A stretch of DNA of 25,548 nt from Candidatus Hydrothermarchaeales archaeon (GCA_036444275.1 JAZGAD010000039.1:1-25548), one strand, 5' to 3'; shown: positions 18-17,835, numbered from the stretch's first letter. Numbers and translations: made by a program. The notes: generated from the letters alone by a model not told the origin.

Positions 18-791
18 ATGCTCGTCTTCGTGGGCTTAGGGCTGAATGACGAGAGGGACCTCACCCTGAAGGGCTTGGAGGAAGCCCGCTCCTGCGATCT
101 ATTATTCGCAGAGTTCTATACCAGTGCCCTCTCTATTACTTCTGAAGAGATAGCTAGGCTTGTGGGAAAGGAGATTATAGTTCTTGATAGGAGCGAAATA
201 GAAGAGAAGGAGGATATGATACTGGAACCAGCGACAAAAAAGAAGGTATGCCTCCTAGTACCTGGCGATCCACTTATATCCACGACTCATATATCTCTGC
301 GAATTGAAGCTAAAAAACGAGGCATAGAGACTAGGGTGGTGCACAATGCCTCCATATCTTCGGCCGCCCCATCGGTCTCAGGCCTGCAGAATTACAAGTT
401 CGGCAAATCAGCAAGCATAGCTATGCCCGAAAAAGGCTTTTCCCCTGAAACGCCGTACGATGTCGTGAAAGAGAATAAAGCACGGGGACTGCACACCCTC
501 TTATTCCTGGACATAAAGGTTGATGGCGAAAAGAGGAGATTGTTGACAGCTGGGCAGGCGATGAAAATACTTTTGGATACCGAGGCAAAGCGAGGTGAAG
601 GCGTCTTTACAGCTGAGACTCTGTGCATCGTCCTGGGAAAGGTGGGCTCAGAAAATTGCGTTGTGAAGGCAGGGAATGTTAAAGATTTATTGACACAGAC
701 TTTTGGAGCGCCGCCTCACACATTGATAGTGCCTGGGAGACTCCACTTTATGGAGGAAGAATACTTGAGGGAATTCGGAGGGTTGAAATGA
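18..791 (+). CDS. dph5: Diphthine synthase (diphthamide biosynthesis methyltransferase)
   Basis: N-terminal LVFVGLGL..RDLTLKG, AEFYTS, PGDPLISTTH, GLQNYKFGKSASI and GLHTLLFLDI motifs typical of Dph5. Confidence 0.95.
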   Translation: MLVFVGLGLNDERDLTLKGLEEARSCDLLFAEFYTSALSITSEEIARLVGKEIIVLDRSEIEEKEDMILEPATKKKVCLLVPGDPLISTTHISLRIEAKKRGIETRVVHNASISSAAPSVSGLQNYKFGKSASIAMPEKGFSPETPYDVVKENKARGLHTLLFLDIKVDGEKRRLLTAGQAMKILLDTEAKRGEGVFTAETLCIVLGKVGSENCVVKAGNVKDLLTQTFGAPPHTLIVPGRLHFMEEEYLREFGGLK

Positions 792-1363
792 GGCTGCATT
801 CAGATAAAAAGGGGCTTCGTGCTCTTGGTATTGCTGAGAGCTTTCAGAAAGGTGTGAGCGAGAAGTCGATGCTTGCAGGCGTTGTTATGCGTGGTGACCT
901 GCAGATAGACGGTTTTGAGTTGACGTTTATAACAGTAGGCGGTCTAGATGCTACAGAGGGCGTGCTACGGTTATACAACAGTCTAGGGAGGCGGGACATT
1001 AACCTCCTGCTATTGAACGGCTGTGTGATAAGCTGGTACAACATCATAGACCTAGAAGAAGTCTTCAAGGCACTAGAGATACCCATGATATGCGTTACCT
1101 ACGAGGAGAGCGAGGGCCTGGAGAAGTATTTTAAGGAATTCGAGGATTCAGAGAAACGCCTAGAGATATACAGGAGGGTGGGGGAGCGCACTCCTGTTAA
1201 GCTTCACACAGGCCACGAGGTCCTAGTGCGTTCATACGGCATAGACGATGAAAAAGAGGTAAAGAGGGTCTTGGACAAGTTTACTCTGCAGGGCGCTGTG
1301 CCGGAACCCTTGAAGGTGGCTAGGCTCCTGGCAAGAGCAGCTATAAAGAAAGAATTGGCATAA
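788..1363 (+). CDS. DUF99 family protein (endonuclease V-like fold)
   Basis: LGIAESF, GVVMRGDLQIDG, GLDAT, GCVISWYNIID and VPEPLKVARLLA motifs. ATGA overlap with dph5. Confidence 0.88.
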   Translation: MRLHSDKKGLRALGIAESFQKGVSEKSMLAGVVMRGDLQIDGFELTFITVGGLDATEGVLRLYNSLGRRDINLLLLNGCVISWYNIIDLEEVFKALEIPMICVTYEESEGLEKYFKEFEDSEKRLEIYRRVGERTPVKLHTGHEVLVRSYGIDDEKEVKRVLDKFTLQGAVPEPLKVARLLARAAIKKELA

Positions 1364-1371
1364 CTTTTTTC

Positions 1372-1391
1372 GAATGCCCAGCATACTATTT
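1372..1391 (+). repeat. Left inverted repeat GAATGCCCAGCATACTATTT
   Basis: Exact reverse complement of 6771-6790 (AAATAGTATGCTGGGCATTC). Confidence 0.92.
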
Positions 1392-1413
1392 GCCCCGTTT
1401 TACTTTCTTCTGA

Positions 1414-1437
1414 GTTGCCGTTCATCTTCTGTCTTAT
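1414..1437 (+). repeat. Direct repeat copy 1 (GTTGCCGTTCATCTT..GTCTTAT)
   Basis: 14/15 identity with 6293-6307 (GTTGCCATTCATCTT). The match extends through G(T/A)CTTAT with a 2-nt gap. Confidence 0.6.
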
Positions 1438-1503
1438 CATCGACCTAGATTGTGATCAAGCGCTAGACTCTGCAATCCAAAAATCTGGGCAGTATACAAA
1501 CCA

Positions 1504-1559
1504 CCAAAAAACTTATTTTTGGCAAGTTAAACTTTACATTTGCTAAAAACTTATTTTAG
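1504..1559 (-). terminator. Two palindromic oligo-T sites with identical ACTTA spacer, probably terminating the island operon
   Basis: CCAAAAA-ACTTA-TTTTTGG (1504-1522) and CTAAAA-ACTTA-TTTTAG (1543-1559) directly downstream of the McrC-like stop codon. Confidence 0.45.
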
Positions 1560-1561
1560 AC

Positions 1562-3274
1562 CTATTTTTCAGAATGTTTTTCCAGTATTCTGACCAAAAA
1601 TTCATCTAAAGTTTTCAGGTCCTCATGATTAAGAGGTTTTAAAGGAATAGCCCCAACGCCATCAAATCCTTCTATTGAATCTACCGATGTTCTTTCACTG
1701 TCTCCGTTGTCTTTTTTCTCATAAAATCTGAAATTCTCAGTGTCCCCGGGATAGAGTAGACAAACAGAAATAGCTTGGTTTATGGCATCTTTATACGTAT
1801 GCATCTTATAGATGTCGCCTCGTTTAAAAGTAGAGCTAGTTTTTTCTTCGGTCTCAATCTCATCGTTTACTTTTTCCGGGAAGTCAACTTTATCGATTTT
1901 GAACTTAGCATCGAAGATGTATTTCTTTCCTTCTAGTTCTAAAGAAATATCCGGTCTTAATGGTAGAGAATAAGATTTTTTACAATCTTTTCCGAAGTAT
2001 GTTTTATTGTAGTAAAGTTCAATTTTTGGGAATTTTTTACTCTTATCCCAAACAATCTTATTGTAATATCGAAGCTCAACTCTTTTTTCTGTTGTCCTAT
2101 CTATACGAGCCTTTTTTGGTGGTCCTAATATTTTTCTAAGTATTTCTACCATTTTAAAATAAGTCCAGTATTCATAGAGGGTTGCAATGTCCTTAGAATC
2201 AATTATTGATCTCAGATCATCCTCGTTTATAGGATAATTTGTGGCTAGGTTAAGTCTTGAAAAGTGCATTAAGATCTCTCTGTATCCCTCTTTTCGTTGC
2301 AATACAGATGAGCTTGAGGGAATAAAAGTAAGGTCACCTATCTCTTGAAAAAAGTTATTACTAAGCAGGGTTTTGATTTGTCCCAACATCAAATGGCAAT
2401 CATATTCAATCTCGGCATCAAGAAGTTCTGTTTCATTCTTCAATAGTTCCTGAAACCTCTTTATAACATCCTGGCAAGCATTAAGAAAATATTTTACGAA
2501 TCTGTTTTCAGGCGTATCATAGTCTTTAATGGTCTCTTCGACAAAGATTCTCTCAGGAAAGAAATATTCTTTCTTTGCGCTTATATCTCTGATCTTTTGA
2601 GCTAAGGATGTAACGGCTAAACTTGATTCAGGTTCTATCTTTACTAAGTTTTCAGGATTAGTGAATATCTTCTCTATAGTTGTAACATTAATGTTTGAGG
2701 CTTTCGAAACATCTTTTAATTCAATTTTTTTCTCTCTTTTAAAATGAGGGCTATAGAGAATTTTATTTACCTGTCCTTTAAGACGATCAAAATTTTTTAC
2801 TTGTAGCATTATATATCGAAGATATACAAAATTATGGTAAAGTACCTCTATGGGCCAATATTCTGTTCTATCAAATGGCAAAAAAGTAGGTGAATTATAA
2901 TCATAAGGCAGTGCTTTTATTATGGTTGATATTTCTTCTAATAATTCTTTAAATTCATCAGCACTAATTTTTTTGTTTTCTATATCTAGTTCTACTCCGT
3001 AGAATTTGGATGTTCCTACAAAGTTTTTATAATTTAATATCCCCGCTTTTTTCTCTCGCCCGAACCACTTGAAAACCTGTTTACTAAACTTAAACTCGTC
3101 TCCCGGGTCTTCTTGGAATTCTACATGATATTCTGACTGTTCATGCAAGCAAAGCTTATTGTCCTTGCAATCTAATTTATAATCGTCTTTTCCTTTTGAG
3201 ATATAAACTATATTATCATTAACTTCGACTTTAGCTTTATTATCTTCTAGTTTAATTTCCACTTCGGTCATCAT
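1562..3274 (-). CDS. McrC-like nuclease (DUF2357 + PD-(D/E)xK domain)
   Basis: YDTPENRFVKYFL and LYEYW (DUF2357), RPDISL...FDAKFK nuclease motif, and DIYKMHTYKDAI. ATGA overlap with the upstream McrB-like gene. Confidence 0.88.
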   Translation of the reverse strand: MMTEVEIKLEDNKAKVEVNDNIVYISKGKDDYKLDCKDNKLCLHEQSEYHVEFQEDPGDEFKFSKQVFKWFGREKKAGILNYKNFVGTSKFYGVELDIENKKISADEFKELLEEISTIIKALPYDYNSPTFLPFDRTEYWPIEVLYHNFVYLRYIMLQVKNFDRLKGQVNKILYSPHFKREKKIELKDVSKASNINVTTIEKIFTNPENLVKIEPESSLAVTSLAQKIRDISAKKEYFFPERIFVEETIKDYDTPENRFVKYFLNACQDVIKRFQELLKNETELLDAEIEYDCHLMLGQIKTLLSNNFFQEIGDLTFIPSSSSVLQRKEGYREILMHFSRLNLATNYPINEDDLRSIIDSKDIATLYEYWTYFKMVEILRKILGPPKKARIDRTTEKRVELRYYNKIVWDKSKKFPKIELYYNKTYFGKDCKKSYSLPLRPDISLELEGKKYIFDAKFKIDKVDFPEKVNDEIETEEKTSSTFKRGDIYKMHTYKDAINQAISVCLLYPGDTENFRFYEKKDNGDSERTSVDSIEGFDGVGAIPLKPLNHEDLKTLDEFLVRILEKHSEK

Positions 3275-5031
3275 TCTATGAAACTTACAAATCCTTGATC
3301 TTTTAGCTTATTCAACATCCGATAAATCTTAATAGCGGATCTAGGATAAAGAGCCTCCTTTGCTACTTCCCGCGGAGCAGAATTCTCAGAATCTCCCCCC
3401 TCCTCTGTATTTTTTTCATCTTTTAATTCGAAAGAAGGTGTATTATCCTCAAGTTCTATAGAGTTCCATAGGGTGTCTGGTAAAATACCTTTTAGAACAT
3501 CGCCTTTAGAACTTCTATGCCCATCGAGACAGTATCTCAGCAGCCTGCTTAGTGGCATTTCTAGTTTATGTTTACTCCCATGAAACTTAGGTAGAACCTT
3601 TTGTAAAATCTGCAAATCAAAAGCTATATCCAAATTCTTTTTCTCATCTTCACTAAATCTATAACTTAGTGAAGTATCGGAATTGTGAATGTAAAATAGA
3701 ATCTCGTTTACAACCCTGTAACCAAAATGTAAGTTGTAGTCTCTTAAAATCTCATTTATATCTACTAATCTAGCGTAATAGTTTTGATAATTATTAATTA
3801 GATCATTCTTAACAAAAGTTAAATCCAATAACTTAAGGTGATAGGATCCTCCGTTGGTAAATTCGGATATCTCTGAATCTGATGCTGTAAATGAATCCTC
3901 ACCATTTTTAGAACTATCTCTATAGGCTTTTAGGTTTACCGCGTTAAACTCGATGGTGTTTGCCCTATCTAAGACTTTAGGGCTAAACATATAGGTGGTT
4001 TCATCAATATTCACGGTCCCTGTAAAATAGAGGTTTGGGGGAATTTCAATCTTAGGTGGAATTACATATTCGATACCGTCATCTCCTTTTACAACAAGGT
4101 CTCTGTTTTTATTATGCAATACCACCGGTTCCTGTTGGATCTCGCCATCGTCCCCAATTTTCCTACTTTCTAGACAGCTCAAGAAGTCTGAGAAGTAATA
4201 TTCAACTTTTGCAAGATTCATTTCATCAAGGATCACAAAATAAGGTTTTGATGCTTCTTTCTTTTCTTGATATTCCCTGTAAGCTCGCAACATTAGCTTT
4301 AGGAATTCCGTGGGTTCATATTTTTCGGTTAAAAGATTATAAAATCCGAGTAAACCTTTATTATCTGACCATTCTGGCCGCACAGAAATAAAGGCATATC
4401 TTTTTTCTTTCCTTTTAATTTTCTTTCTAAGTAACTTCTCAAATCTCAGTTTTGGAACCTTGTCTTTGTCTCCGTGTATTTTTTCAATATGTAGTGTATC
4501 TTCATCCACCTTTAGGTTGGTAATCCATTTTTTCAATTCCCCTTTAAATCCAACTTGATCAATGGAGCCCTTATCTTTTCCTCTTATAAGATACTGTAAC
4601 GTGCATTTTTGTGACTTACCATCGAAGAGGATTTCAATTTTCTTTTGTGTTTTCAACTCAGGCATATCAAACCAATTTCCTATCTTAACCGGAACAGTCC
4701 AACTATCTTTAGAAGTTTTTTTGACCTCCCAGTAAAAATTTGTCTCATCATTTTCCGGGAATGATTCAATAAAAGGAATCCCCTCTTCTTCAGAATACAT
4801 ATATTCTGCAAAAAATTGTGCAATTTTTGTTTTGCCTGTTCCGGAGATTCCTGTCAATATTACAAATGGTTTGGTTTTAAGTGCTAAGTAATAGTTGTTC
4901 ACGACTTCTTCGAGGAAGTAAAAATTCTTTGAACATATGAAATTATAAAATCCATTATCCTGTTCTTTGATTATAGGTACATACCATTCCTCCCCATCCT
5001 TGTCTGTTTCAATTTTGTATTCAGGTAGCAT
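3271..5031 (-). CDS. McrB-like AAA+ GTPase of the DUF2357-partner class, with internal insertion
   Basis: KPFVILTGISGTGKT (Walker A), SVRPEWSD..GLLGFYN, VILDEMNLAKVEYYFSDFLS (Walker B), GTVNIDETT..FSPKVLDRAN, FGYRV and QKVLPKFHG. Confidence 0.92.
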   Translation of the reverse strand: MLPEYKIETDKDGEEWYVPIIKEQDNGFYNFICSKNFYFLEEVVNNYYLALKTKPFVILTGISGTGKTKIAQFFAEYMYSEEEGIPFIESFPENDETNFYWEVKKTSKDSWTVPVKIGNWFDMPELKTQKKIEILFDGKSQKCTLQYLIRGKDKGSIDQVGFKGELKKWITNLKVDEDTLHIEKIHGDKDKVPKLRFEKLLRKKIKRKEKRYAFISVRPEWSDNKGLLGFYNLLTEKYEPTEFLKLMLRAYREYQEKKEASKPYFVILDEMNLAKVEYYFSDFLSCLESRKIGDDGEIQQEPVVLHNKNRDLVVKGDDGIEYVIPPKIEIPPNLYFTGTVNIDETTYMFSPKVLDRANTIEFNAVNLKAYRDSSKNGEDSFTASDSEISEFTNGGSYHLKLLDLTFVKNDLINNYQNYYARLVDINEILRDYNLHFGYRVVNEILFYIHNSDTSLSYRFSEDEKKNLDIAFDLQILQKVLPKFHGSKHKLEMPLSRLLRYCLDGHRSSKGDVLKGILPDTLWNSIELEDNTPSFELKDEKNTEEGGDSENSAPREVAKEALYPRSAIKIYRMLNKLKDQGFVSFIE

Positions 5032-5032
5032 T

Positions 5033-5236
5033 TTAGCCCTCCTCCAAATTTGGTATTTCTATATCTCTCCTGACATATGCTTTAACAATTGCTACTGCCA
5101 AGAACTTTCTAAGAAAATCTTCGGCAAATTCACCCTTCCTTATATCAAAAACGCCTAAATGCACCTTATCTTTTGATATTTCAATCTCACTTGTTTTCAA
5201 GATGTTTCTTGCCTGGAATATCCAAACATTTTCCAT
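5033..5236 (-). CDS. 67-aa hypothetical protein in the defence operon (N-terminus resembles the first EVE strand, WIFQA)
   Basis: ATG preceded by a GAGGGA RBS. The ORF fills the gap between its neighbours and its stop lies 1 nt before the McrB ATG. Confidence 0.6.
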   Translation of the reverse strand: MENVWIFQARNILKTSEIEISKDKVHLGVFDIRKGEFAEDFLRKFLAVAIVKAYVRRDIEIPNLEEG

Positions 5237-5248
5237 TGTTCCCTCACA

Positions 5249-6250
5249 TCATCCTATAGGTATAGCATTGTTTCTAATAACTTTTTTTGCCTCTTCTTCC
5301 CAACCATCAGGTAAAGTACCTCCCTGATTTGCGACTAAATCGGACATCTTTTCTAGGATAGTTGATATTTTAAGCTTATTATTGGAACCTAATTCTTCAA
5401 GTGCTTGAGAAAATAACTTGTAGTATAGATCGATGTCTCCTCCTTTTGAGATATAATCTCCTTTTATTAAATTTGGATAGACATACCCGTTTTCTATTCG
5501 AAATTTTTTGGTTTTTGGAGTAAGATAACCTTTGACATCACTGAAAACCAGGGAGTATTCTCCATCTCCACCAATTTTAACATTAGGGATTATATCCGGA
5601 GAATTATCTTTTTCCAGTGGAATCTCTTCAAATTCCCTCTTTTCTCCCCCCTCAATTTCGAATTCAATGGAGGTTATATTGTCGTTAGAATCGAATATTT
5701 TATATGAACAGTCGATATTTACATGAACTTTAAGGTCTGTTATGGGCGTCTTTTTTGCAAAATTGTAAATGAGTTCCCAGTCCTCTGGTTCTAACTTATG
5801 CACGGTCCCCGGTTTGTAAATGGCCTCCCTTTTAAGCTTATCTTTAATATCCCGTATGCTAATTCTTGAAGTCGAACTAACCAGCCAGTCAACAGGTTTG
5901 GTATGTTGGTACTGTATATCGCCGCGATCCTCATATTTGTATCCACCTGTTACCCTGCCCACACCGAATATAGATAAACCACCTGCATAGGCAATCACAC
6001 CATCTCCTTCTTTTATCTCCAAAAAATCATTGATATGTCTGGCAGATTGCCCAAGCTGGCCTTTATTTCCTTCACCCCCTGCTTCTGTTATCCTCCTTTT
6101 TATCTCATCTTTTGTTGGATTATCAGATAAATCTCCGATATAAGACCATCCTATGGCCACCCAGCCATTTGAAATGAATTCATCCCAGTACTCCTCTTCA
6201 TTACCCTTTTCGCCAGCCTTCACACTCCAATAATTTGGTTCTTCCGGCAT
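5249..6250 (-). CDS. Stand-alone putative modified-base reader: EVE/PUA-like N-terminal domain, PEGA/Ig-like middle domain, helical C-terminus
   Basis: YWSVKAG..WDEF...GWVAIGW...IKEGDGVIA...GVGRVTGGYKY...HTKPVDW matches N-terminal domains seen on McrB/Mrr proteins. GEYSLVFSDVKGYLTP resembles PEGA-like repeats. GGAGGTGA RBS. Confidence 0.7.
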   Translation of the reverse strand: MPEEPNYWSVKAGEKGNEEEYWDEFISNGWVAIGWSYIGDLSDNPTKDEIKRRITEAGGEGNKGQLGQSARHINDFLEIKEGDGVIAYAGGLSIFGVGRVTGGYKYEDRGDIQYQHTKPVDWLVSSTSRISIRDIKDKLKREAIYKPGTVHKLEPEDWELIYNFAKKTPITDLKVHVNIDCSYKIFDSNDNITSIEFEIEGGEKREFEEIPLEKDNSPDIIPNVKIGGDGEYSLVFSDVKGYLTPKTKKFRIENGYVYPNLIKGDYISKGGDIDLYYKLFSQALEELGSNNKLKISTILEKMSDLVANQGGTLPDGWEEEAKKVIRNNAIPIG

Positions 6251-6292
6251 AGCTAGAACCTCACCTCCTCAATCATTGAATTCAAATGTTTT

Positions 6293-6314
6293 GTTGCCAT
6301 TCATCTTGACTTAT
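6293..6314 (+). repeat. Direct repeat copy 2 (GTTGCCATTCATCTTGACTTAT)
   Basis: Matches 1414-1437. Lies between the NUDIX gene and the reader gene. Confidence 0.6.
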
Positions 6315-6329
6315 ATAGTTCCTGAGCCT

Positions 6330-6713
6330 CTAACCTTCCTTTATTTTCTCAACAATAGCTATATCTGCCTCCACAAAATCATATTTTTCAAATTCTTTCA
6401 GCAAGATCCATTTTATTTCTTCGTGCTCGTTTAATTTAAACTCTCCCGAAAGATGCTTTACCTTATAGGCCAATAATTCAATTAACCCATGGCTATATTC
6501 ATGTTTGCTGGAGCCTACAAAATCGTTAACTCCTGTCTTAATACCGAATTCCTCTAAAAGCTCTCTTTCAAGGCATTGTTTTGGGGTTTCACCCTCCTCT
6601 AACTTGCCCCCTGGAAACTCCCACTTACCCTCTAACTGTCCTCCTTTCTTTCTTCTAGAAACCAATATTTTACCATTCTTTTCAATCACAACAGCAGTTA
6701 CTTTTACACATAT
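6330..6713 (-). CDS. MutT/NudG-like NUDIX (d)NTP pyrophosphohydrolase; start uncertain (ATA 6713 or GTG 6689)
   Basis: WEFPGGKLEEGETPKQCLERELLEEFGI Nudix box. The in-frame upstream sequence VKVTAVV supplies the conserved first strand. Confidence 0.88.
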   Translation of the reverse strand: MCVKVTAVVIEKNGKILVSRRKKGGQLEGKWEFPGGKLEEGETPKQCLERELLEEFGIKTGVNDFVGSSKHEYSHGLIELLAYKVKHLSGEFKLNEHEEIKWILLKEFEKYDFVEADIAIVEKIKEG

Positions 6714-6770
6714 CTTTTAACGCTTTAATGATGATAATTTAAATTTTAAATCTCTTCTCAACTTCAGGCA

Positions 6771-6790
6771 AAATAGTATGCTGGGCATTC
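6771..6790 (-). repeat. Right inverted repeat
   Basis: Reverse complement identical to 1372-1391. Confidence 0.92.
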
Positions 6791-6827
6791 AAAAACTTTA
6801 TTTTACTTTTGATTTAATTGAAGTACT

Positions 6828-7430
6828 ATGTCCTCTGAAGACCAGATCCTAAAGGCCATCTGGAAGCTCAACTTCGAGAAGGGCGCTGCTACAGAAGAAG
6901 ACTTGGGAGAATTCAAAGAGGATCTACCTCAGTTATTGCGGGAGGGGTTGGTTGAGAGAATCGATAGTGGGTATTGTCTGAGTAAAAGCGGCAGAAAGAA
7001 GATTAAAGTCGTGGCCTGCGGCGGTGTATTTGACATCCTGCATCCAGGGCATGGCTTCATCCTTGAAAAGGCTAAAGAGTTGGGCAATCTCTTAGTCGTA
7101 GTCGTCGCTAGGGATTCGACTGTTATGAAGAGGAAGCGCATCCCAATTGTGCCAGAGAAGCAGAGGCTTGAGATGGTGCGATACCTGAAGCCGGTTGACG
7201 TTGCTTCTCTGGGTGAAGAGAGTGACTACCTGAAGATAATGGAGAGGATCGCTCCGGATGTTATAGTCCTAGGCCCAGATCAGCACCATAACGAAGAGCT
7301 TATCAGGAAGGAATTGGAAAAGCGGGGCTTAAAGGTAGAGGTTGTGCGCATAGAAGAGTATAAAGAGGCCCCTCTGCACAGCACTGGAGATATCCTAAAG
7401 AAGATAATGGAGCAGGGCTATCCCAAATAG
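6828..7430 (+). CDS. ribL: Archaeal FAD synthetase (cytidylyltransferase family) with N-terminal winged-helix-like extension
   Basis: GGVFDILHPGH, VVVARDSTV, EKQRLEMV..LKPVD and PDVIVLGPDQ. Adjacent to ribH. Confidence 0.82.
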   Translation: MSSEDQILKAIWKLNFEKGAATEEDLGEFKEDLPQLLREGLVERIDSGYCLSKSGRKKIKVVACGGVFDILHPGHGFILEKAKELGNLLVVVVARDSTVMKRKRIPIVPEKQRLEMVRYLKPVDVASLGEESDYLKIMERIAPDVIVLGPDQHHNEELIRKELEKRGLKVEVVRIEEYKEAPLHSTGDILKKIMEQGYPK

Positions 7431-7844
7431 CTACCCCAGCTCCTTGAGCCTCTTCACCATCTTAACTACGCTTTCCACAGCGCGCTTTGCATACTTAACG
7501 CGCTCGTGTGCTTGAAGCCTGCTCAAGCCTGGTCCTGTAACTCCAAGTGCAACTGGTTTTTCATATTTCAAGGAAAGGTCTGCAATCTTCCTGGAGGCGT
7601 GCTGTATCACGATCTCGTCATGCTCTGTCTCGCCTTCTATCACTGCTCCCAAGGTTACGACGCCGTCGACATCTTGCTTCTCCAGCAACTTCTTAACCAT
7701 TAGGGGCATGTCAAATGTGCCCGGGACCTTCACTATGTGCGTGATATCTGCCTCAAGGAAATCCGCCTGCTCTTTCGCTAGCTCAACCATGGCGTAGGTT
7801 ATGTCGTAGTTGAACTCCGATGCAACTATGCCTATATTCACCAT
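7431..7844 (-). CDS. ribH: 6,7-dimethyl-8-ribityllumazine synthase
   Basis: IGIVASEFNYDIT, VPGTFDMP, TLGAVIEGETEHD and KPVALGVTGPG. Start reassigned to ATG 7844. Confidence 0.93.
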   Translation of the reverse strand: MVNIGIVASEFNYDITYAMVELAKEQADFLEADITHIVKVPGTFDMPLMVKKLLEKQDVDGVVTLGAVIEGETEHDEIVIQHASRKIADLSLKYEKPVALGVTGPGLSRLQAHERVKYAKRAVESVVKMVKRLKELG

Positions 7845-7983
7845 GTCCCATGAATTTAGCGTTCGACTATATATAATTTTTGAGTAGCTACCCACATCTG
7901 AGTAGAAATACCTTAAAGTTAACTGCGTAGTAATAAGTCCATTCATCTGTCCCGGTTATGTGTCGCATTTCAACCCGTGCTGA

Positions 7984-8064
7984 CTAGATAAAGGTTTTAA
8001 TATGAATGAAAACTCTCCCCCTGTCTATGTCCACCACGATGCTCGTATCGAGGGAGAGCCTCAC
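7984..8064 (-). pseudogene. Truncated VapC/PIN toxin remnant
   Basis: GTG overlaps the AbrB TGA. It translates to MRLSLDTSIVVDIDRG (PIN N-terminal LDTS motif), then unrelated sequence and a stop after 26 codons. Confidence 0.72.
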
Positions 8065-8306
8065 GGGATCACGCCCAGCCTCTTGAACCTTTCCCTAGAA
8101 TCTTTCCTCACTCTATCCAAGACCTCTTCGTATCCCTTGGGGAGGAAGCCGCTGTACTCAGAAAATGCGGTCTCGATCTTCTTGACCACGATCTTCCCGT
8201 CCTCGATGCGTATGTCGACCTTATCTCCTATCTTGATCTCCAACTTCTCTCTGATTTTTTTTGGAATGGTGATTTGGGTATTCCTGGTGACGGTCACGGT
8301 TACCAT
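8061..8306 (-). CDS. AbrB/MazE/SpoVT family antitoxin (VapB-like)
   Basis: VTRNTQITIPKKIREKLEIKIGDKVDIRIEDGKIVVKK. Confidence 0.9.
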   Translation of the reverse strand: MVTVTVTRNTQITIPKKIREKLEIKIGDKVDIRIEDGKIVVKKIETAFSEYSGFLPKGYEEVLDRVRKDSRERFKRLGVIP

Positions 8307-8458
8307 AATATTTACTAGAATATCATAGTATCTAAAAATTACTATGGATTATAACTATACTCTGGAAACTTATTAGTGCGGTTGGATACATTAACTACCC
8401 TCATAAGTTTATTAAACAAGGAATTACTTATTTTCTTAGGCGCGGATTGGGTAGTAAT

Positions 8459-12305: not shown

Positions 12306-13097
12306 ATATTCAAGTTAGTAGTTTTGAAGGACTTGGTAAGAGTGCCACCCGAGAGATTCGGGGAACCCATTAATGGAGTGGTAGAAGAGATCCTGAAGGT
12401 GGGCTATGAGTACAACACCATCCACGGGAGAAGCGGGTGGGAGGGAGGATACGAAGGCAGGTTGGACAAGGACCTAGGCATGGTAGTAGCAGTGACTGAA
12501 CTAAAGGACGTGACCGATGGCAGCGTTATACCTGGCGACGGCGGCGCTTATCATACAGCGACTTTCGAGGCTTTAGTTTTCAAGCCGGGGCTCCATGAAA
12601 TCGTGGACGGTAAGGTGGTTGAAATAGTCGAATTTGGGGCCTTCCTACGATTCGGCCCACTTGATGGTCTGGTACATGTCTCTCAGATCGCCGACGACTA
12701 CATAGCTCATGATGCTAAGAGAGGCGCCTTAGTGGGAAAGGAAAGCGGCAGAACGCTCGATGTTGAGGACACAGTCAGGGCGCGGATAGTGGCAATCAGC
12801 CTTAATCCAGAGAAATCCAAGGAGAGCAAGATCAACCTTACTATGAGGCAACCGGGTCTTGGAAAGTTCGGATGGTTGGAAGAGGATAAAAAGAAGGCCA
12901 AACCCGAGGAGAAACCAAAGAAAGTTGAAAAAGAGAAAGAAAAGCCCAAGGAGAAGCCCACAGTAGAACCAAAGAAAGGTGAAGAGAAAAAAATAGAAGC
13001 TGAGAAAAAGAAAGAAAAGCCTGAGGAGAAAACACCAGCAAAACAAGAAAAAGATGGAGAGAAAAAAATAGAAGCTGAGAAAAAGAAGGCGGAATAA
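12306..13097 (+). CDS. rpoE1: RNA polymerase subunit Rpo7 (E') with K/E/P-rich C-terminal tail; probable ATA start
   Basis: KDLVRVPP, PGDGGAYH, S1 domain VEFGAFLRFGPLDGLVHVSQI and LTMRQPGLGK. In-frame ATA-FKLVVLKD lies 7 nt after AGGAGGG. Confidence 0.94.
   Translation: MFKLVVLKDLVRVPPERFGEPINGVVEEILKVGYEYNTIHGRSGWEGGYEGRLDKDLGMVVAVTELKDVTDGSVIPGDGGAYHTATFEALVFKPGLHEIVDGKVVEIVEFGAFLRFGPLDGLVHVSQIADDYIAHDAKRGALVGKESGRTLDVEDTVRARIVAISLNPEKSKESKINLTMRQPGLGKFGWLEEDKKKAKPEEKPKKVEKEKEKPKEKPTVEPKKGEEKKIEAEKKKEKPEEKTPAKQEKDGEKKIEAEKKKAE
12983..13087 (+). repeat. Perfect 30-bp direct repeat in the rpoE1 tail (EKKIEAEKK x2)
   Basis: AGAGAAAAAAATAGAAGCTGAGAAAAAGAA at 12983-13012 and 13058-13087. Confidence 0.9.
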
Positions 13098-13098
13098 G

Positions 13099-13281
13099 AT
13101 GAAGGAGAAGGCTTGCAAGGAATGCAATAGGATCGGTGCGTCGGACATTTGTAAGGTCTGCAGGCAGCCGATGTCCCCAAGTTGGATGGGCTATGTCAGA
13201 GTGATAGACCCAGAGAAATCAAACATCGCACAAAAACTTAAACTCAGCACTAAGGGGAGATTCGCCTTGAGGGTAAGGTAA
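13099..13281 (+). CDS. spt4: Transcription elongation factor Spt4 (RpoE'')
   Basis: KACKECNRI...CKVC, WMGYVRVIDPEKSNIA and GRFALRVR. Confidence 0.93.
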   Translation: MKEKACKECNRIGASDICKVCRQPMSPSWMGYVRVIDPEKSNIAQKLKLSTKGRFALRVR

Positions 13282-13785
13282 ATGAAGGACCTCAGAGTTC
13301 CAGAAGAGCTGCGAGGTCTATTCAAGAAGCCCTTTGGAGAGCTTTACAGTGGGCAGGGGTTAAAACCAGCTCAAGATATAAAGGCCGTGCTTAAGGATGA
13401 GAGGATTATAGTAGTAGGCGATGTCACACTGCGAAACGTCCTTGCCATTGGCCTAAAGCCTTCTTTGGCGATAGTAGACCTCAAGACAAAGAGGGATAGG
13501 GAGATGCTCTTAGGAGGCAAAGCCATTAAAGTCAGGAACTCACCGGGCATGATAACGCAAGAGCTATGGAACAGCATACATGAAAACATTGACAAAGAGG
13601 ATGTGACAATACTAGTCGATGGTGAAGAGGACTTAGCGGTGCTTCCATGCATACTCGAGGCTGAGTGGGATGCGATAATCTTATATGGCCAGCCGAATGA
13701 AGGGATAGTCCTTGTGAAAGTAGATGAGGATAAAAAACTAAAGGCAAGCATGCTGCTGAAGATGTTATCCTCTGTAAGTGGTTAA
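13282..13785 (+). CDS. DUF359 GTP-dependent dephospho-CoA kinase family
   Basis: KKPFGEL, VGDVT, VDLKTKR, VDGEEDLAVLP and YGQPNEG. Confidence 0.9.
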   Translation: MKDLRVPEELRGLFKKPFGELYSGQGLKPAQDIKAVLKDERIIVVGDVTLRNVLAIGLKPSLAIVDLKTKRDREMLLGGKAIKVRNSPGMITQELWNSIHENIDKEDVTILVDGEEDLAVLPCILEAEWDAIILYGQPNEGIVLVKVDEDKKLKASMLLKMLSSVSG

Positions 13786-13786
13786 G

Positions 13787-14281
13787 ATGAAACTTGAGAT
13801 ACTTGAGGAGGTAGAAAATCCTCTCTTCGATAGAAGGGAGCTAAAGGTAAAGGTTTTACATAAGGCCGCTACTCCCAGCTGGGCGGATGTCAGGGACAAG
13901 ATAAGTGTTTTAGCTAAAGCAAAGAAAGACACTGTTATACTGGACTCTATACAGAGCAGATTCGGCATAAGGGAGTCTCTCGCCCTAGTTAGGATATACA
14001 AGACTAAAGATAGGGCTTTGCAGATAGAGCCGAAACACAAGCTCAAGAAGAACTTCCCTAAAGAAGAAAAAGTTGAAAAGCCTGAGGAGAAGCCCACAGT
14101 AGAACAGAAAGAAGAAGCAAAGGAAGAAAAAACAGAAGAGAAGCAAGAGCAACCTGAAGTCAAAGCCAAAGAAGCAAAGGAAGCTGAAGTGGTAAAAACA
14201 GAACCAAAGGAAGAGAAAGCTAAATCTAAATCAAAAGTAAAATCTAAGGAAACATCCAAGGAAATGGAGAAAGAGAAGTAG
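13787..14281 (+). CDS. rps24e: 30S ribosomal protein S24e with long K/E-rich tail
   Basis: [21 protein letters not shown] and IEPKH. Operon position. Confidence 0.92.
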
Positions 14282-15435: not shown

Positions 15436-15555
15436 CGGACCCGCCGGGATTTGAACCCGGGCTGCAGGGTGTCTCCCCTAGGTAGCCATGCTACTATGTG
15501 TGCCAACTAGACCGAGGGCCGAAGCCCTGTATACTATCCACTATACTACGGGCCC
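15436..15555 (-). tRNA. tRNA-Arg(TCG) with a 48-nt intron at position 37/38 (intron 15471-15518); CCA not encoded
   Basis: Acceptor stem GGGCCCG/CGGGTCC, anticodon stem CAGGG/CCCTG, loop CT-TCG-G^A, T-arm CCGGG-TTCAAAT-CCCGG. Canonical bulge-helix-bulge: CTTC/GGAG central helix, bulges GGC and ACA, CCT/AGG outer helix. Confidence 0.93.
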
Positions 15556-17531: not shown

Positions 17532-17835
17532 GCAGCGAGCTGGAGGGCATCTGTCGCTATCGTTCTATGAACGAGGGTGAGGAAACTCCGCTCATCTCAC
17601 GGGAACCCGACTCCTGAAAGGGAGAGGCTGAGAGGCCTAGCTCTGGAGCAGAAACGATACACTGCTGCATGGTGGATAATGAGCACGATGGTGTGAAGAC
17701 GTGCAGTGGATGGTGAAACGGCCAACTTCGGGGATGCAAGCCTGAGTATCGCCGTTGAGACCCGTGCAAGGCGAGTAATAGGCGCATTAGACGAATGATG
17801 CCGAAACATAAGGCGGGTTACTCCCAGCACGCTGC
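17532..17835 (+). ncRNA. rnpB: RNase P RNA (archaeal, probably type A)
   Basis: GAGGAAACTCCG (CR-I), GCAGAAAC, TGAAACGGC, GCAAG, TAGACGAATG and AACATAAGGCGGGTTA (CR-V). P1 pairing GCAGCGAGCTGGAG / CTCCCAGCACGCTGC. P8/P9-like hairpins are present. Confidence 0.93.

Follow-up and report, generated by a model that had tools for sequence, protein, structure and literature searches.

The window analysed here is a 25,548-nt contig of Candidatus Hydrothermarchaeales archaeon (GCA_036444275.1, JAZGAD010000039.1:1-25548), which belongs to a metagenome bin (G000) of 61 contigs that is 81% complete. At positions 1368-6794 it harbors an AT-rich block of minus-strand genes, bounded on both sides by an inverted repeat (IR) and located between the genes for endonuclease dU and a RibL-like nucleotidyltransferase. 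The left host gene (788..1363, plus strand; DUF99, PF01949 Endo_dU, E 1.8e-55) is intact up to its stop codon at 1361-1363, and the left arm of the repeat begins 4 nt past this codon. The right arm ends 33 nt ahead of the ATG (6828) of the right host gene (6828..7430, plus strand), which encodes a nucleotidyltransferase of cytidylyltransferase fold (PF01467, E 2.4e-21) and is followed by ribH (7431-7946, minus strand; TIGR00114, 155 bits against a cut-off of 84.6). The presumptive name RibL is used for this protein because of its fold and its ribH neighbour. A position of the repeats just behind the DUF99 stop codon and just before ribL had been pointed out in an earlier, sequence-only reading of the window, and the two distances agree with it.

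The sequence GAATGCCCAGCATACTATTT is read directly at 1372-1391 on the plus strand and recurs as its exact reverse complement at 6771-6790 on the minus strand. With one mismatch, the repeat extends to 24 nt (left terminal IR 1368..1391, plus strand; right terminal IR 6771..6794, minus strand), TTTC at 1368-1371 standing opposite AAAA at 6791-6794. A repeat finder reported the pair as 25 nt with 96% identity (1367-1391 / 6771-6795). On the inner side three further bases pair beyond a 1-nt indel, and on the outer side 3-4 further bases pair beyond one mismatch. Since runs of T and A adjoin the 20-mer, the edge of the repeat is ambiguous and may be placed at 20, 24 or about 26 nt. Among 100 dinucleotide-shuffled versions of the window, not one contained even two matches of the 20-mer (up to 3 mismatches), and in the complete set of contigs of the genome (1,486,092 bases) it was found, at the same threshold, at the two arms only. 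Up to 4 mismatches, two more places were obtained, both unrelated. The 12-mers of the repeat are not otherwise repeated in the genome, save one with two occurrences elsewhere. Apart from the pair described here, only two exact inverted pairs of more than 17 nt within 20 kb exist in the genome, one of 20 nt on contig C54 and one in paralogous genes on contig C48, while pairs of 18 or 19 nt were not found at all. Direct reading, repeat finder, shuffles and genome scan thus confirm the inverted 20-mer pair and its 24-bp extension as given in the sequence-only reading. That reading had also considered that the 20-mer might be a dispersed regulatory motif; with two copies in its own genome and one in a related genome (G022, see below), it is not dispersed.

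Neither flanking gene is truncated in the window, and the endonuclease dU aligns over residues 1-191 to its homologue in the closest relative (G001), which alone among the other genomes belongs to the family of the source genome. Endonuclease dU was found in 35 of 41 genomes, the source genome included. A RibL-like gene follows it within 6 to about 420 nt, usually with ribH next in line, in nine of 29 loci of relatives, which span the families f1, f4, f5 and f6; the spacer between both genes is about 80 nt long in G001. At the other 20 loci, different core genes follow or the contig ends too soon. No accessory cargo was found in the gap between the two genes in the 29 loci, apart from a 134-aa HIT-like (histidine triad) open reading frame (ORF) in two loci of family f4 (L006 and L011; G012 and G004; ~2073-2477). 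Relatives without the island retain neither repeat, contrary to the possibility raised earlier that both might persist there. The GC content is 47-48% up to position 1500, 30-39% over 1501-6500 and 43-50% beyond, and no DNA match to the island was obtained in the phylum, the repeat itself excepted. The nuclease gene of the island (see below) was found in none of the 37 other genomes of the phylum. Given the adjacency in relatives, the full-length flanks, the low GC content and the lack of nuclease matches in these 37 genomes, about 5.4 kb of foreign DNA separates the endonuclease dU and RibL-like genes, which were ancestral neighbours. The block is thus a genuine insertion, and its edges coincide with those of the repeat.

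The insertion is flanked by the direct repeat ACTTT, of which the left copy (1363..1367) overlaps the last base of the endonuclease dU stop codon and the right copy lies at 6795..6799. Among 400,000 random AT-rich position pairs from the source genome, chance alone produced a direct repeat of 5 nt at a fixed boundary in 0.28%, and in 0.82% when three boundary choices were allowed. At each of the known ends, two in the window and one in G022, the repeat is followed by a run of A, and it is these T/A runs, blurring the edge of the IR, that render the duplication ambiguous. ACTTT probably represents a 5-bp target-site duplication made at insertion. From the earlier description of ACTTT as flanking both ends, the presence of the sequence is confirmed by direct reading, while its status as a duplication depends on the boundary chosen and is tentative, as had been stated at the time.

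The low-GC part of the block is occupied by five minus-strand ORFs. The first gene of this operon (6330..6689) encodes a NUDIX (MutT-like) hydrolase of 119 aa (PF14815, E 3.3e-20; PF00293, E 4.5e-18; PADLOC PDC-S07, E 7e-43), whose TIGR00586 score of 94.2 bits falls just short of the cut-off of 97.9 and which might serve, for example, in the cleaning of modified nucleotides. Downstream of it, a stand-alone reader-like protein of 333 aa, similar to the DNA-binding N-terminal part of McrB-family proteins, is encoded at 5249..6250 (PADLOC PDC-S02, E 6e-18, residues 6-130). The Atlas model of this protein aligns to DUF8426/EVE-type N-termini of McrB proteins with TM values of 0.42-0.53, a structural lead that makes it a candidate modification reader. 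A 67-aa ORF (5033..5236) without match in Pfam, PADLOC, NCBIfam or PHROGs is followed by the gene of an AAA-type P-loop ATPase of 586 aa (3271..5031; PADLOC PDC-M26A, E 7.3e-45). Matches of this ATPase to nSTAND3, AAA_22, AAA_5 and TrmB are weak (E 4e-4 to 5e-3) and all below the Pfam cut-offs; that to AAA_5, the McrB-type motor, reaches only E 5e-3, and at the C-terminus there is a weak winged-helix match. The last gene (1562..3274) encodes an McrC-like nuclease of 570 aa with DUF2357 and PD-(D/E)XK parts (PF09823, E 7e-36; PF04411, PDDEXK_7, E 3.4e-22; PF10117, McrBC, E 1.5e-5), for which the ATPase is the putative motor partner. Plasmids of Thermococcus barophilus and a spirochaete carry homologues of the nuclease, each behind an unnamed gene of similar size. 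By sequence, no PDB relative was found, including for the reader and the ATPase. The AT-rich stretch upstream of the operon (6690..6770, minus strand), recognized by sequence reading, lies inside the repeats and presumably contains the operon's own promoter.

Judged from these family matches, the operon appears to encode a split McrBC-like, modification-dependent (type IV) restriction system with a separate reader and a NUDIX protein, for which a function in defence is likely. GC profile, ORFs and family matches are in accordance with the AT-rich, minus-strand cargo consisting of defence genes only that the sequence-only reading had described. Its statement that the island carries no transposase or integrase stands as well, since no ORF resembles a transposase, integrase, resolvase, Cas1 or rve protein in Pfam, NCBIfam, PADLOC and PHROGs or, for the reader, by structure. 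The protein collection lists two contigs (25,548 and apparently 24,660 bases) for each of ATPase, reader and endonuclease dU; the NUDIX protein has 119 aa in the entry for the contig of 24,660 bases and 127 aa in that for the contig of 25,548 bases. Public data therefore seem to contain the island on a further, almost identical contig.

The left end of the block comprises more than the repeat arm. Positions 1368..1500 (plus strand, ~133 nt) form a module of host-like GC content which is conserved in contig C159 of G022 (L033, 2065-2196), a genome of the same order as the source but of a different family (f9). When one genome per prokaryote species was scanned, this was the only other contig with the exact 20-mer. 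Identity amounts to 77% over 129-130 nt (E 1.5e-21) and is unevenly distributed, the terminal 25 nt being identical in both genomes and the neighbouring 105 nt about 70% identical. Several small indels in the alignment indicate that the module is non-coding. A conserved end of 25 nt beside 105 nt that have drifted would be expected of a terminus that is bound and cut by a protein. The module does not fold better than shuffled sequences on either strand in either genome (z -0.96 to +1.22). Rfam yielded no match at the gathering score there, only a 14-bit snoRNA match (E 0.94), and nothing at the right end. The 10-nt motif ATRCTGSSCA is found subterminally at 1486..1495 (minus strand), in the same orientation as and 111 nt away from the copy in the left repeat (1375-1384, minus strand); together with 6778-6787 (plus strand) in the right repeat, these are the only exact matches in the window. 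The subterminal copy is a possible second binding site, for which the evidence is weak because the number of one-mismatch matches (13, with 8.8 expected) is not above chance. A longer, degenerate IR was considered for the inner part of the ends and rejected, its score of 18 comparing with 15.5 +/- 2.1 in shuffles, 16% of which reach 18.

In G022, the module is located downstream of a core gene for an MBL-fold hydrolase and is followed by genes for a winged-helix HVO_2833-like protein and a DUF6036 nucleotidyltransferase-like protein. In all four other f9 genomes the MBL gene is directly followed by an aminoacyl-tRNA synthetase gene, and the winged-helix gene was not found in these four. Since the module lies between the MBL gene and the accessory genes, the same end delimits another insertion, which differs in site and in cargo. 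This recurrence of the module across families is the new element of evidence here. The G022 segment itself (L033, 96-2196) represents an insertion or rearrangement encoding the winged-helix protein (320 aa), which has weak replication-initiator-like PHROG matches (E 1e-5 to 5e-3), and the DUF6036-like protein (275 aa). Different cargo between the same repeats, which the sequence-only reading had proposed to look for, was therefore encountered once and beside one end; the second end was not seen.

Searches for a mobiliser and for further copies covered the source genome and the 37 other genomes of the phylum (up to 3 mismatches) as well as larger collections, which were scanned with exact words. 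Several matches were rejected. An apparently unrelated metagenome contig (L060, 565-589) shares 24-25 nt including flanking bases; the match, although longer than the 20-mer used in the scan, lies inside an ORF of 457 aa without further homology and was judged to be unexplained or, in so large a collection, probably due to chance. Only 13 nt are shared with contig C76 of G022, and a match with three mismatches in G029 is located inside a gene and does not extend. As candidate mobility genes, the source genome contains two DDE_Tnp_1 fragments (C54) and three matches to tyrosine recombinases (C10 and C57), none of which is tied to the repeat; the rve family (PF00665) had no match in G000. An autonomous copy, anticipated in the sequence-only reading, was found neither in these genomes nor, as exact 20-mer, in the species genomes, viral sequences and metagenome contigs.

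Tn7 transposons are recognized by termini of the form TGT...ACA, and Tn3-family elements by IRs of about 38 bp starting with GGGG together with genes for a transposase and a resolvase. The ends of the element studied here read TTTCGAATG... and ...CATTCAAAA and do not show TGT...ACA. The Tn3 family is discarded as well, as neither end has GGGG and no such genes are present. Direct reading is thus in line with the earlier statement that the ends match neither type. An integron-type attC site, which would fold as a hairpin, is likewise not supported, the module folding no better than shuffles.

Archaeal Tn7-like transposons, described also for Hydrothermarchaeota, are characterized by a 5-bp duplication, mostly defence cargo and long asymmetric ends, as outlined in 10.1101/2025.07.27.667033. 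The element resembles them in phylum, in cargo of defence type and in its long asymmetric ends, and ACTTT is a candidate for such a duplication. It differs from them in that none of its cargo ORFs fits, with no rve match in G000 (TnsA, TnsC and TniQ were not searched for separately), and in that it is not inserted beside a tRNA gene. Table 1 of PMC2266710 lists ends with CRGT and direct repeats of 4-5 bp for ISH3, and ends with -AATR--------WTW---- and repeats of 10-13 bp for an IS4 subgroup. The latter was rejected: the 20-mer fits AATR and two of the three positions of WTW, while the 13-nt flanks agree at 9 of 13 positions and do not form a duplication of 10-13 bp as listed there. Closer parallels are provided by mobile insertion cassettes such as MIC231 of Bacillus cereus and by transposase-less transporter insertion sequences (IS), the concept of which is outlined in PMC2266710 and PMC9330008. 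Like these, the element consists of passengers between IS-type terminal inverted repeats (TIRs), has no transposase, is flanked by a short direct repeat and would have to be mobilised in trans. In contrast to them, no cognate autonomous IS is known for its ends or was found among the genomes searched, its ends are highly asymmetric, its host belongs to the Hydrothermarchaeales and it carries a type IV restriction operon of five genes. Restriction units with IRs unique to each unit, short target duplications and no working transposase were described by Furuta, Abe and Kobayashi in 2010 (PMC2853133), whose account covers restriction genes of all types including IV. The units reported in that account are bacterial, with IRs of 26-65 bp and 8-bp duplications confirmed at empty sites, whereas the IR here has 24 bp and the tentative duplication 5 bp.

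On balance, 1368-6794 is best regarded as a non-autonomous or decayed TIR transposon that carries passengers in the manner of a mobile insertion cassette, a reading held with a confidence only slightly above even. An element with TIRs of about 24 bp would have inserted into the short spacer between the endonuclease dU and RibL-like genes, probably with duplication of 5 bp (ACTTT). Its left end would be a non-coding module of ~130 nt adapted to the Hydrothermarchaeales and its remainder the foreign, low-GC, McrBC-like restriction operon. Movement, either by a cut-and-paste or by a replicative mechanism, would need a transposase that acts in trans and binds the conserved terminal ~25 nt, and as such an enzyme was not found, this copy may now be immobile. 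Of the options named in the sequence-only reading, that of a non-autonomous cargo element mobilised in trans is favoured by the different cargo in G022, with the mobilisation in trans as its conjectural part.

A number of observations weigh against this reading. An autonomous partner with the same ends was found neither in the source genome nor in the 37 other genomes of the phylum (up to 3 mismatches), and a third copy of the repeat is missing from the 81%-complete source genome at the same threshold. As only G022 and one chance hit in a coding region were obtained, there is no sign of a multi-copy family. Viral contigs gave no match for the 20-mer and none for a degenerate pattern of the module, and plasmid and phage collections none for 1364-1560. 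As these searches relied on exact or near-exact matching and IS copies are often missing from metagenome bins, they do not demonstrate the absence of an autonomous partner. None of the five ORFs is a recognizable mobility gene. The two ends are very unequal, since the right end shares only about 27 nt with the left module of 130 nt. In G022 the second end was not assembled, and a search with the neighbouring gene gave only a paralogue. ACTTT is of low complexity, and the duplication vanishes if the A/T run is counted into the terminus. The empty site envisaged in the sequence-only reading exists as adjacency of the flanking genes in relatives; a site with a single ACTTT was not seen at nucleotide level, the nearest relative being only 76% identical in protein.

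That the ends are so asymmetric and that no transposase was found for them would also suit arrival by another route, for instance as a plasmid- or virus-like element with a lost integrase or by illegitimate recombination, the right arm being a secondary partial duplication of the module tip. The replication-initiator-like winged-helix protein among the G022 cargo recalls plasmid-like elements, too. Insertion by an integrase, however, yields direct and not inverted repeats, and the outer edges of both arms are the edges of the insertion, which is flanked by a 5-nt direct repeat. Moreover, conservation between the families is perfect in the terminal 25 nt and only about 70% in the rest of the module. 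Such a route is therefore considered unlikely. Still less probable is that the IR consists of the crossover sites of a site-specific recombinase and that the segment is invertible, or was once inverted, and not transposed. An invertase requires inverted repeats as they are present here, and the outer flank of the module in G022 resembles that of the right and not of the left arm in the window (17 of 24 positions, anchored shuffle p about 0.02-0.03, AT-rich control 1.5%, BLAST extension 6771-6814), a likeness that a flipped state would give. This likeness is weak, post hoc and of low complexity, though, and an exact 17-nt match of that flank, inside a Lys-rich coding repeat, looks like a chance hit. 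No recombinase is present among the ORFs scanned (18 to 8328), and inversion leaves the 5.4 kb of foreign DNA between genes adjacent in relatives without an account. Flipping would also switch nothing obvious, because the region upstream of the operon sits inside the repeats. The invertible or swappable defence slot offered as second option in the sequence-only reading is not supported, since no recombinase is near, the operon has its upstream region inside the repeats, and the gaps of the relatives hold no other cargo save the HIT-like ORF in two.

An assembly artefact, in which a low-GC segment was mis-joined at a shared 20-mer, has to be considered in a metagenome bin of 61 contigs and 81% completeness, all the more as both IR islands of the genome have exact 20-nt cores, which equals k-1 for k=21. 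A mis-join through a shared k-mer would yield a single copy at each junction and not inverted copies at both, and here identity continues imperfectly past the 20-mer on both sides. Furthermore, the GC shift on the left occurs near 1500 and not at the repeat, so that the unit includes 110 nt of Hydrothermarchaeales-type DNA; repeat and module are contiguous in the independent G022 assembly; and two contigs are on record for each of the three proteins ATPase, reader and endonuclease dU. Altogether, an artefact is highly improbable. The splitting of a host hairpin by the insertion was rejected, as arm and module occur together in G022, at a locus unrelated to this one, and are absent from all endonuclease dU-ribL spacers of the relatives. 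The passenger-carrying TIR transposon favoured above might, in a more far-reaching version, belong to an undescribed family of archaeal cargo transposons with 24-nt termini and an asymmetric ~130-nt module, which carries exchangeable accessory or defence cassettes from one family of the Hydrothermarchaeales to another. Its mobiliser would be unrecognised or host-encoded, and for that reason no partner IS would be found anywhere. This version is regarded as speculative and rather unlikely.

The other low-GC island with an exact IR in the source genome is located on C54 (L095, 2363-7071). It has a size of 4.7 kb, mostly of low GC content, begins 23 nt after the gene of the primase small subunit and is bounded by an exact 20-nt IR (2368-2387 / 7047-7066) with the direct repeat TTTGT on both sides. 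Its cargo comprises one Schlafen/AlbA_2 gene and one transglutaminase-like gene, to which two unrelated DDE_Tnp_1 fragments are added; the left arm directly adjoins one of these fragments. Its ends start with CAGT, which together with the 5-bp direct repeat fits the ISH3 row in Table 1 of PMC2266710; they have nothing in common with the ends of the element between the endonuclease dU and RibL-like genes. This insertion is less cleanly bounded, because in G001 the primase gene directly precedes the homologue of C54 7647-8837. Near copies of the C54 repeat (1-3 mismatches) are present in intergenic DNA of five of the 37 other genomes of the phylum (L128, L130, L131, L134, L136). In two of these loci (L130, G025:C78, and L131, G022:C12; ~1501-1520) the copy is located ~160 nt upstream of the gene for ribosomal protein L3, where conserved sequence meets unrelated sequence, and in L134 two copies lie 45 nt apart. 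The C54 island is a precedent for the reading favoured above, in that it shows that IS-type elements with ends of about 20 bp and 5-bp duplications brought low-GC accessory genes into the source genome and then decayed. The inverted pair on C48 (27250-27410 / 36271-36383) is an inverted duplication of ~130-160 nt, 9 kb apart, within two paralogous membrane-subunit genes of normal GC content; it is a gene duplication and not the boundary of an island.

Further features were noted elsewhere in the window. A 120-nt Rfam tRNA match without ARAGORN call at 15436-15555 (minus strand) suggests an intron-containing tRNA, and an archaeal RNase P RNA is located at 17535-17832 (plus strand; Rfam, 201 bits). 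Lys/Glu-rich ORFs with tandem-like repeats of 54-75 nt extend over 12324-14281. One of these coding repeats contains, at 14227-14243, a 17-nt exact inverted match to the RibL promoter region (6800-6816), which looks like chance.

Little is known about how archaea of hydrothermal sediments acquire defence genes, and the locus provides a clean case, in which a complete modification-dependent restriction operon, as predicted from its protein families, lies between two housekeeping genes within transposon-like ends that also bound other cargo in another family. The architecture as such has already been published for bacterial restriction genes; the value of the locus lies in a documented archaeal example and in the lead to a possible new type of end. 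The only unusual trait is an end module that is conserved, asymmetric and without a known mobiliser. If identified, this mobiliser would open the gene flow of an uncultured phylum to study.

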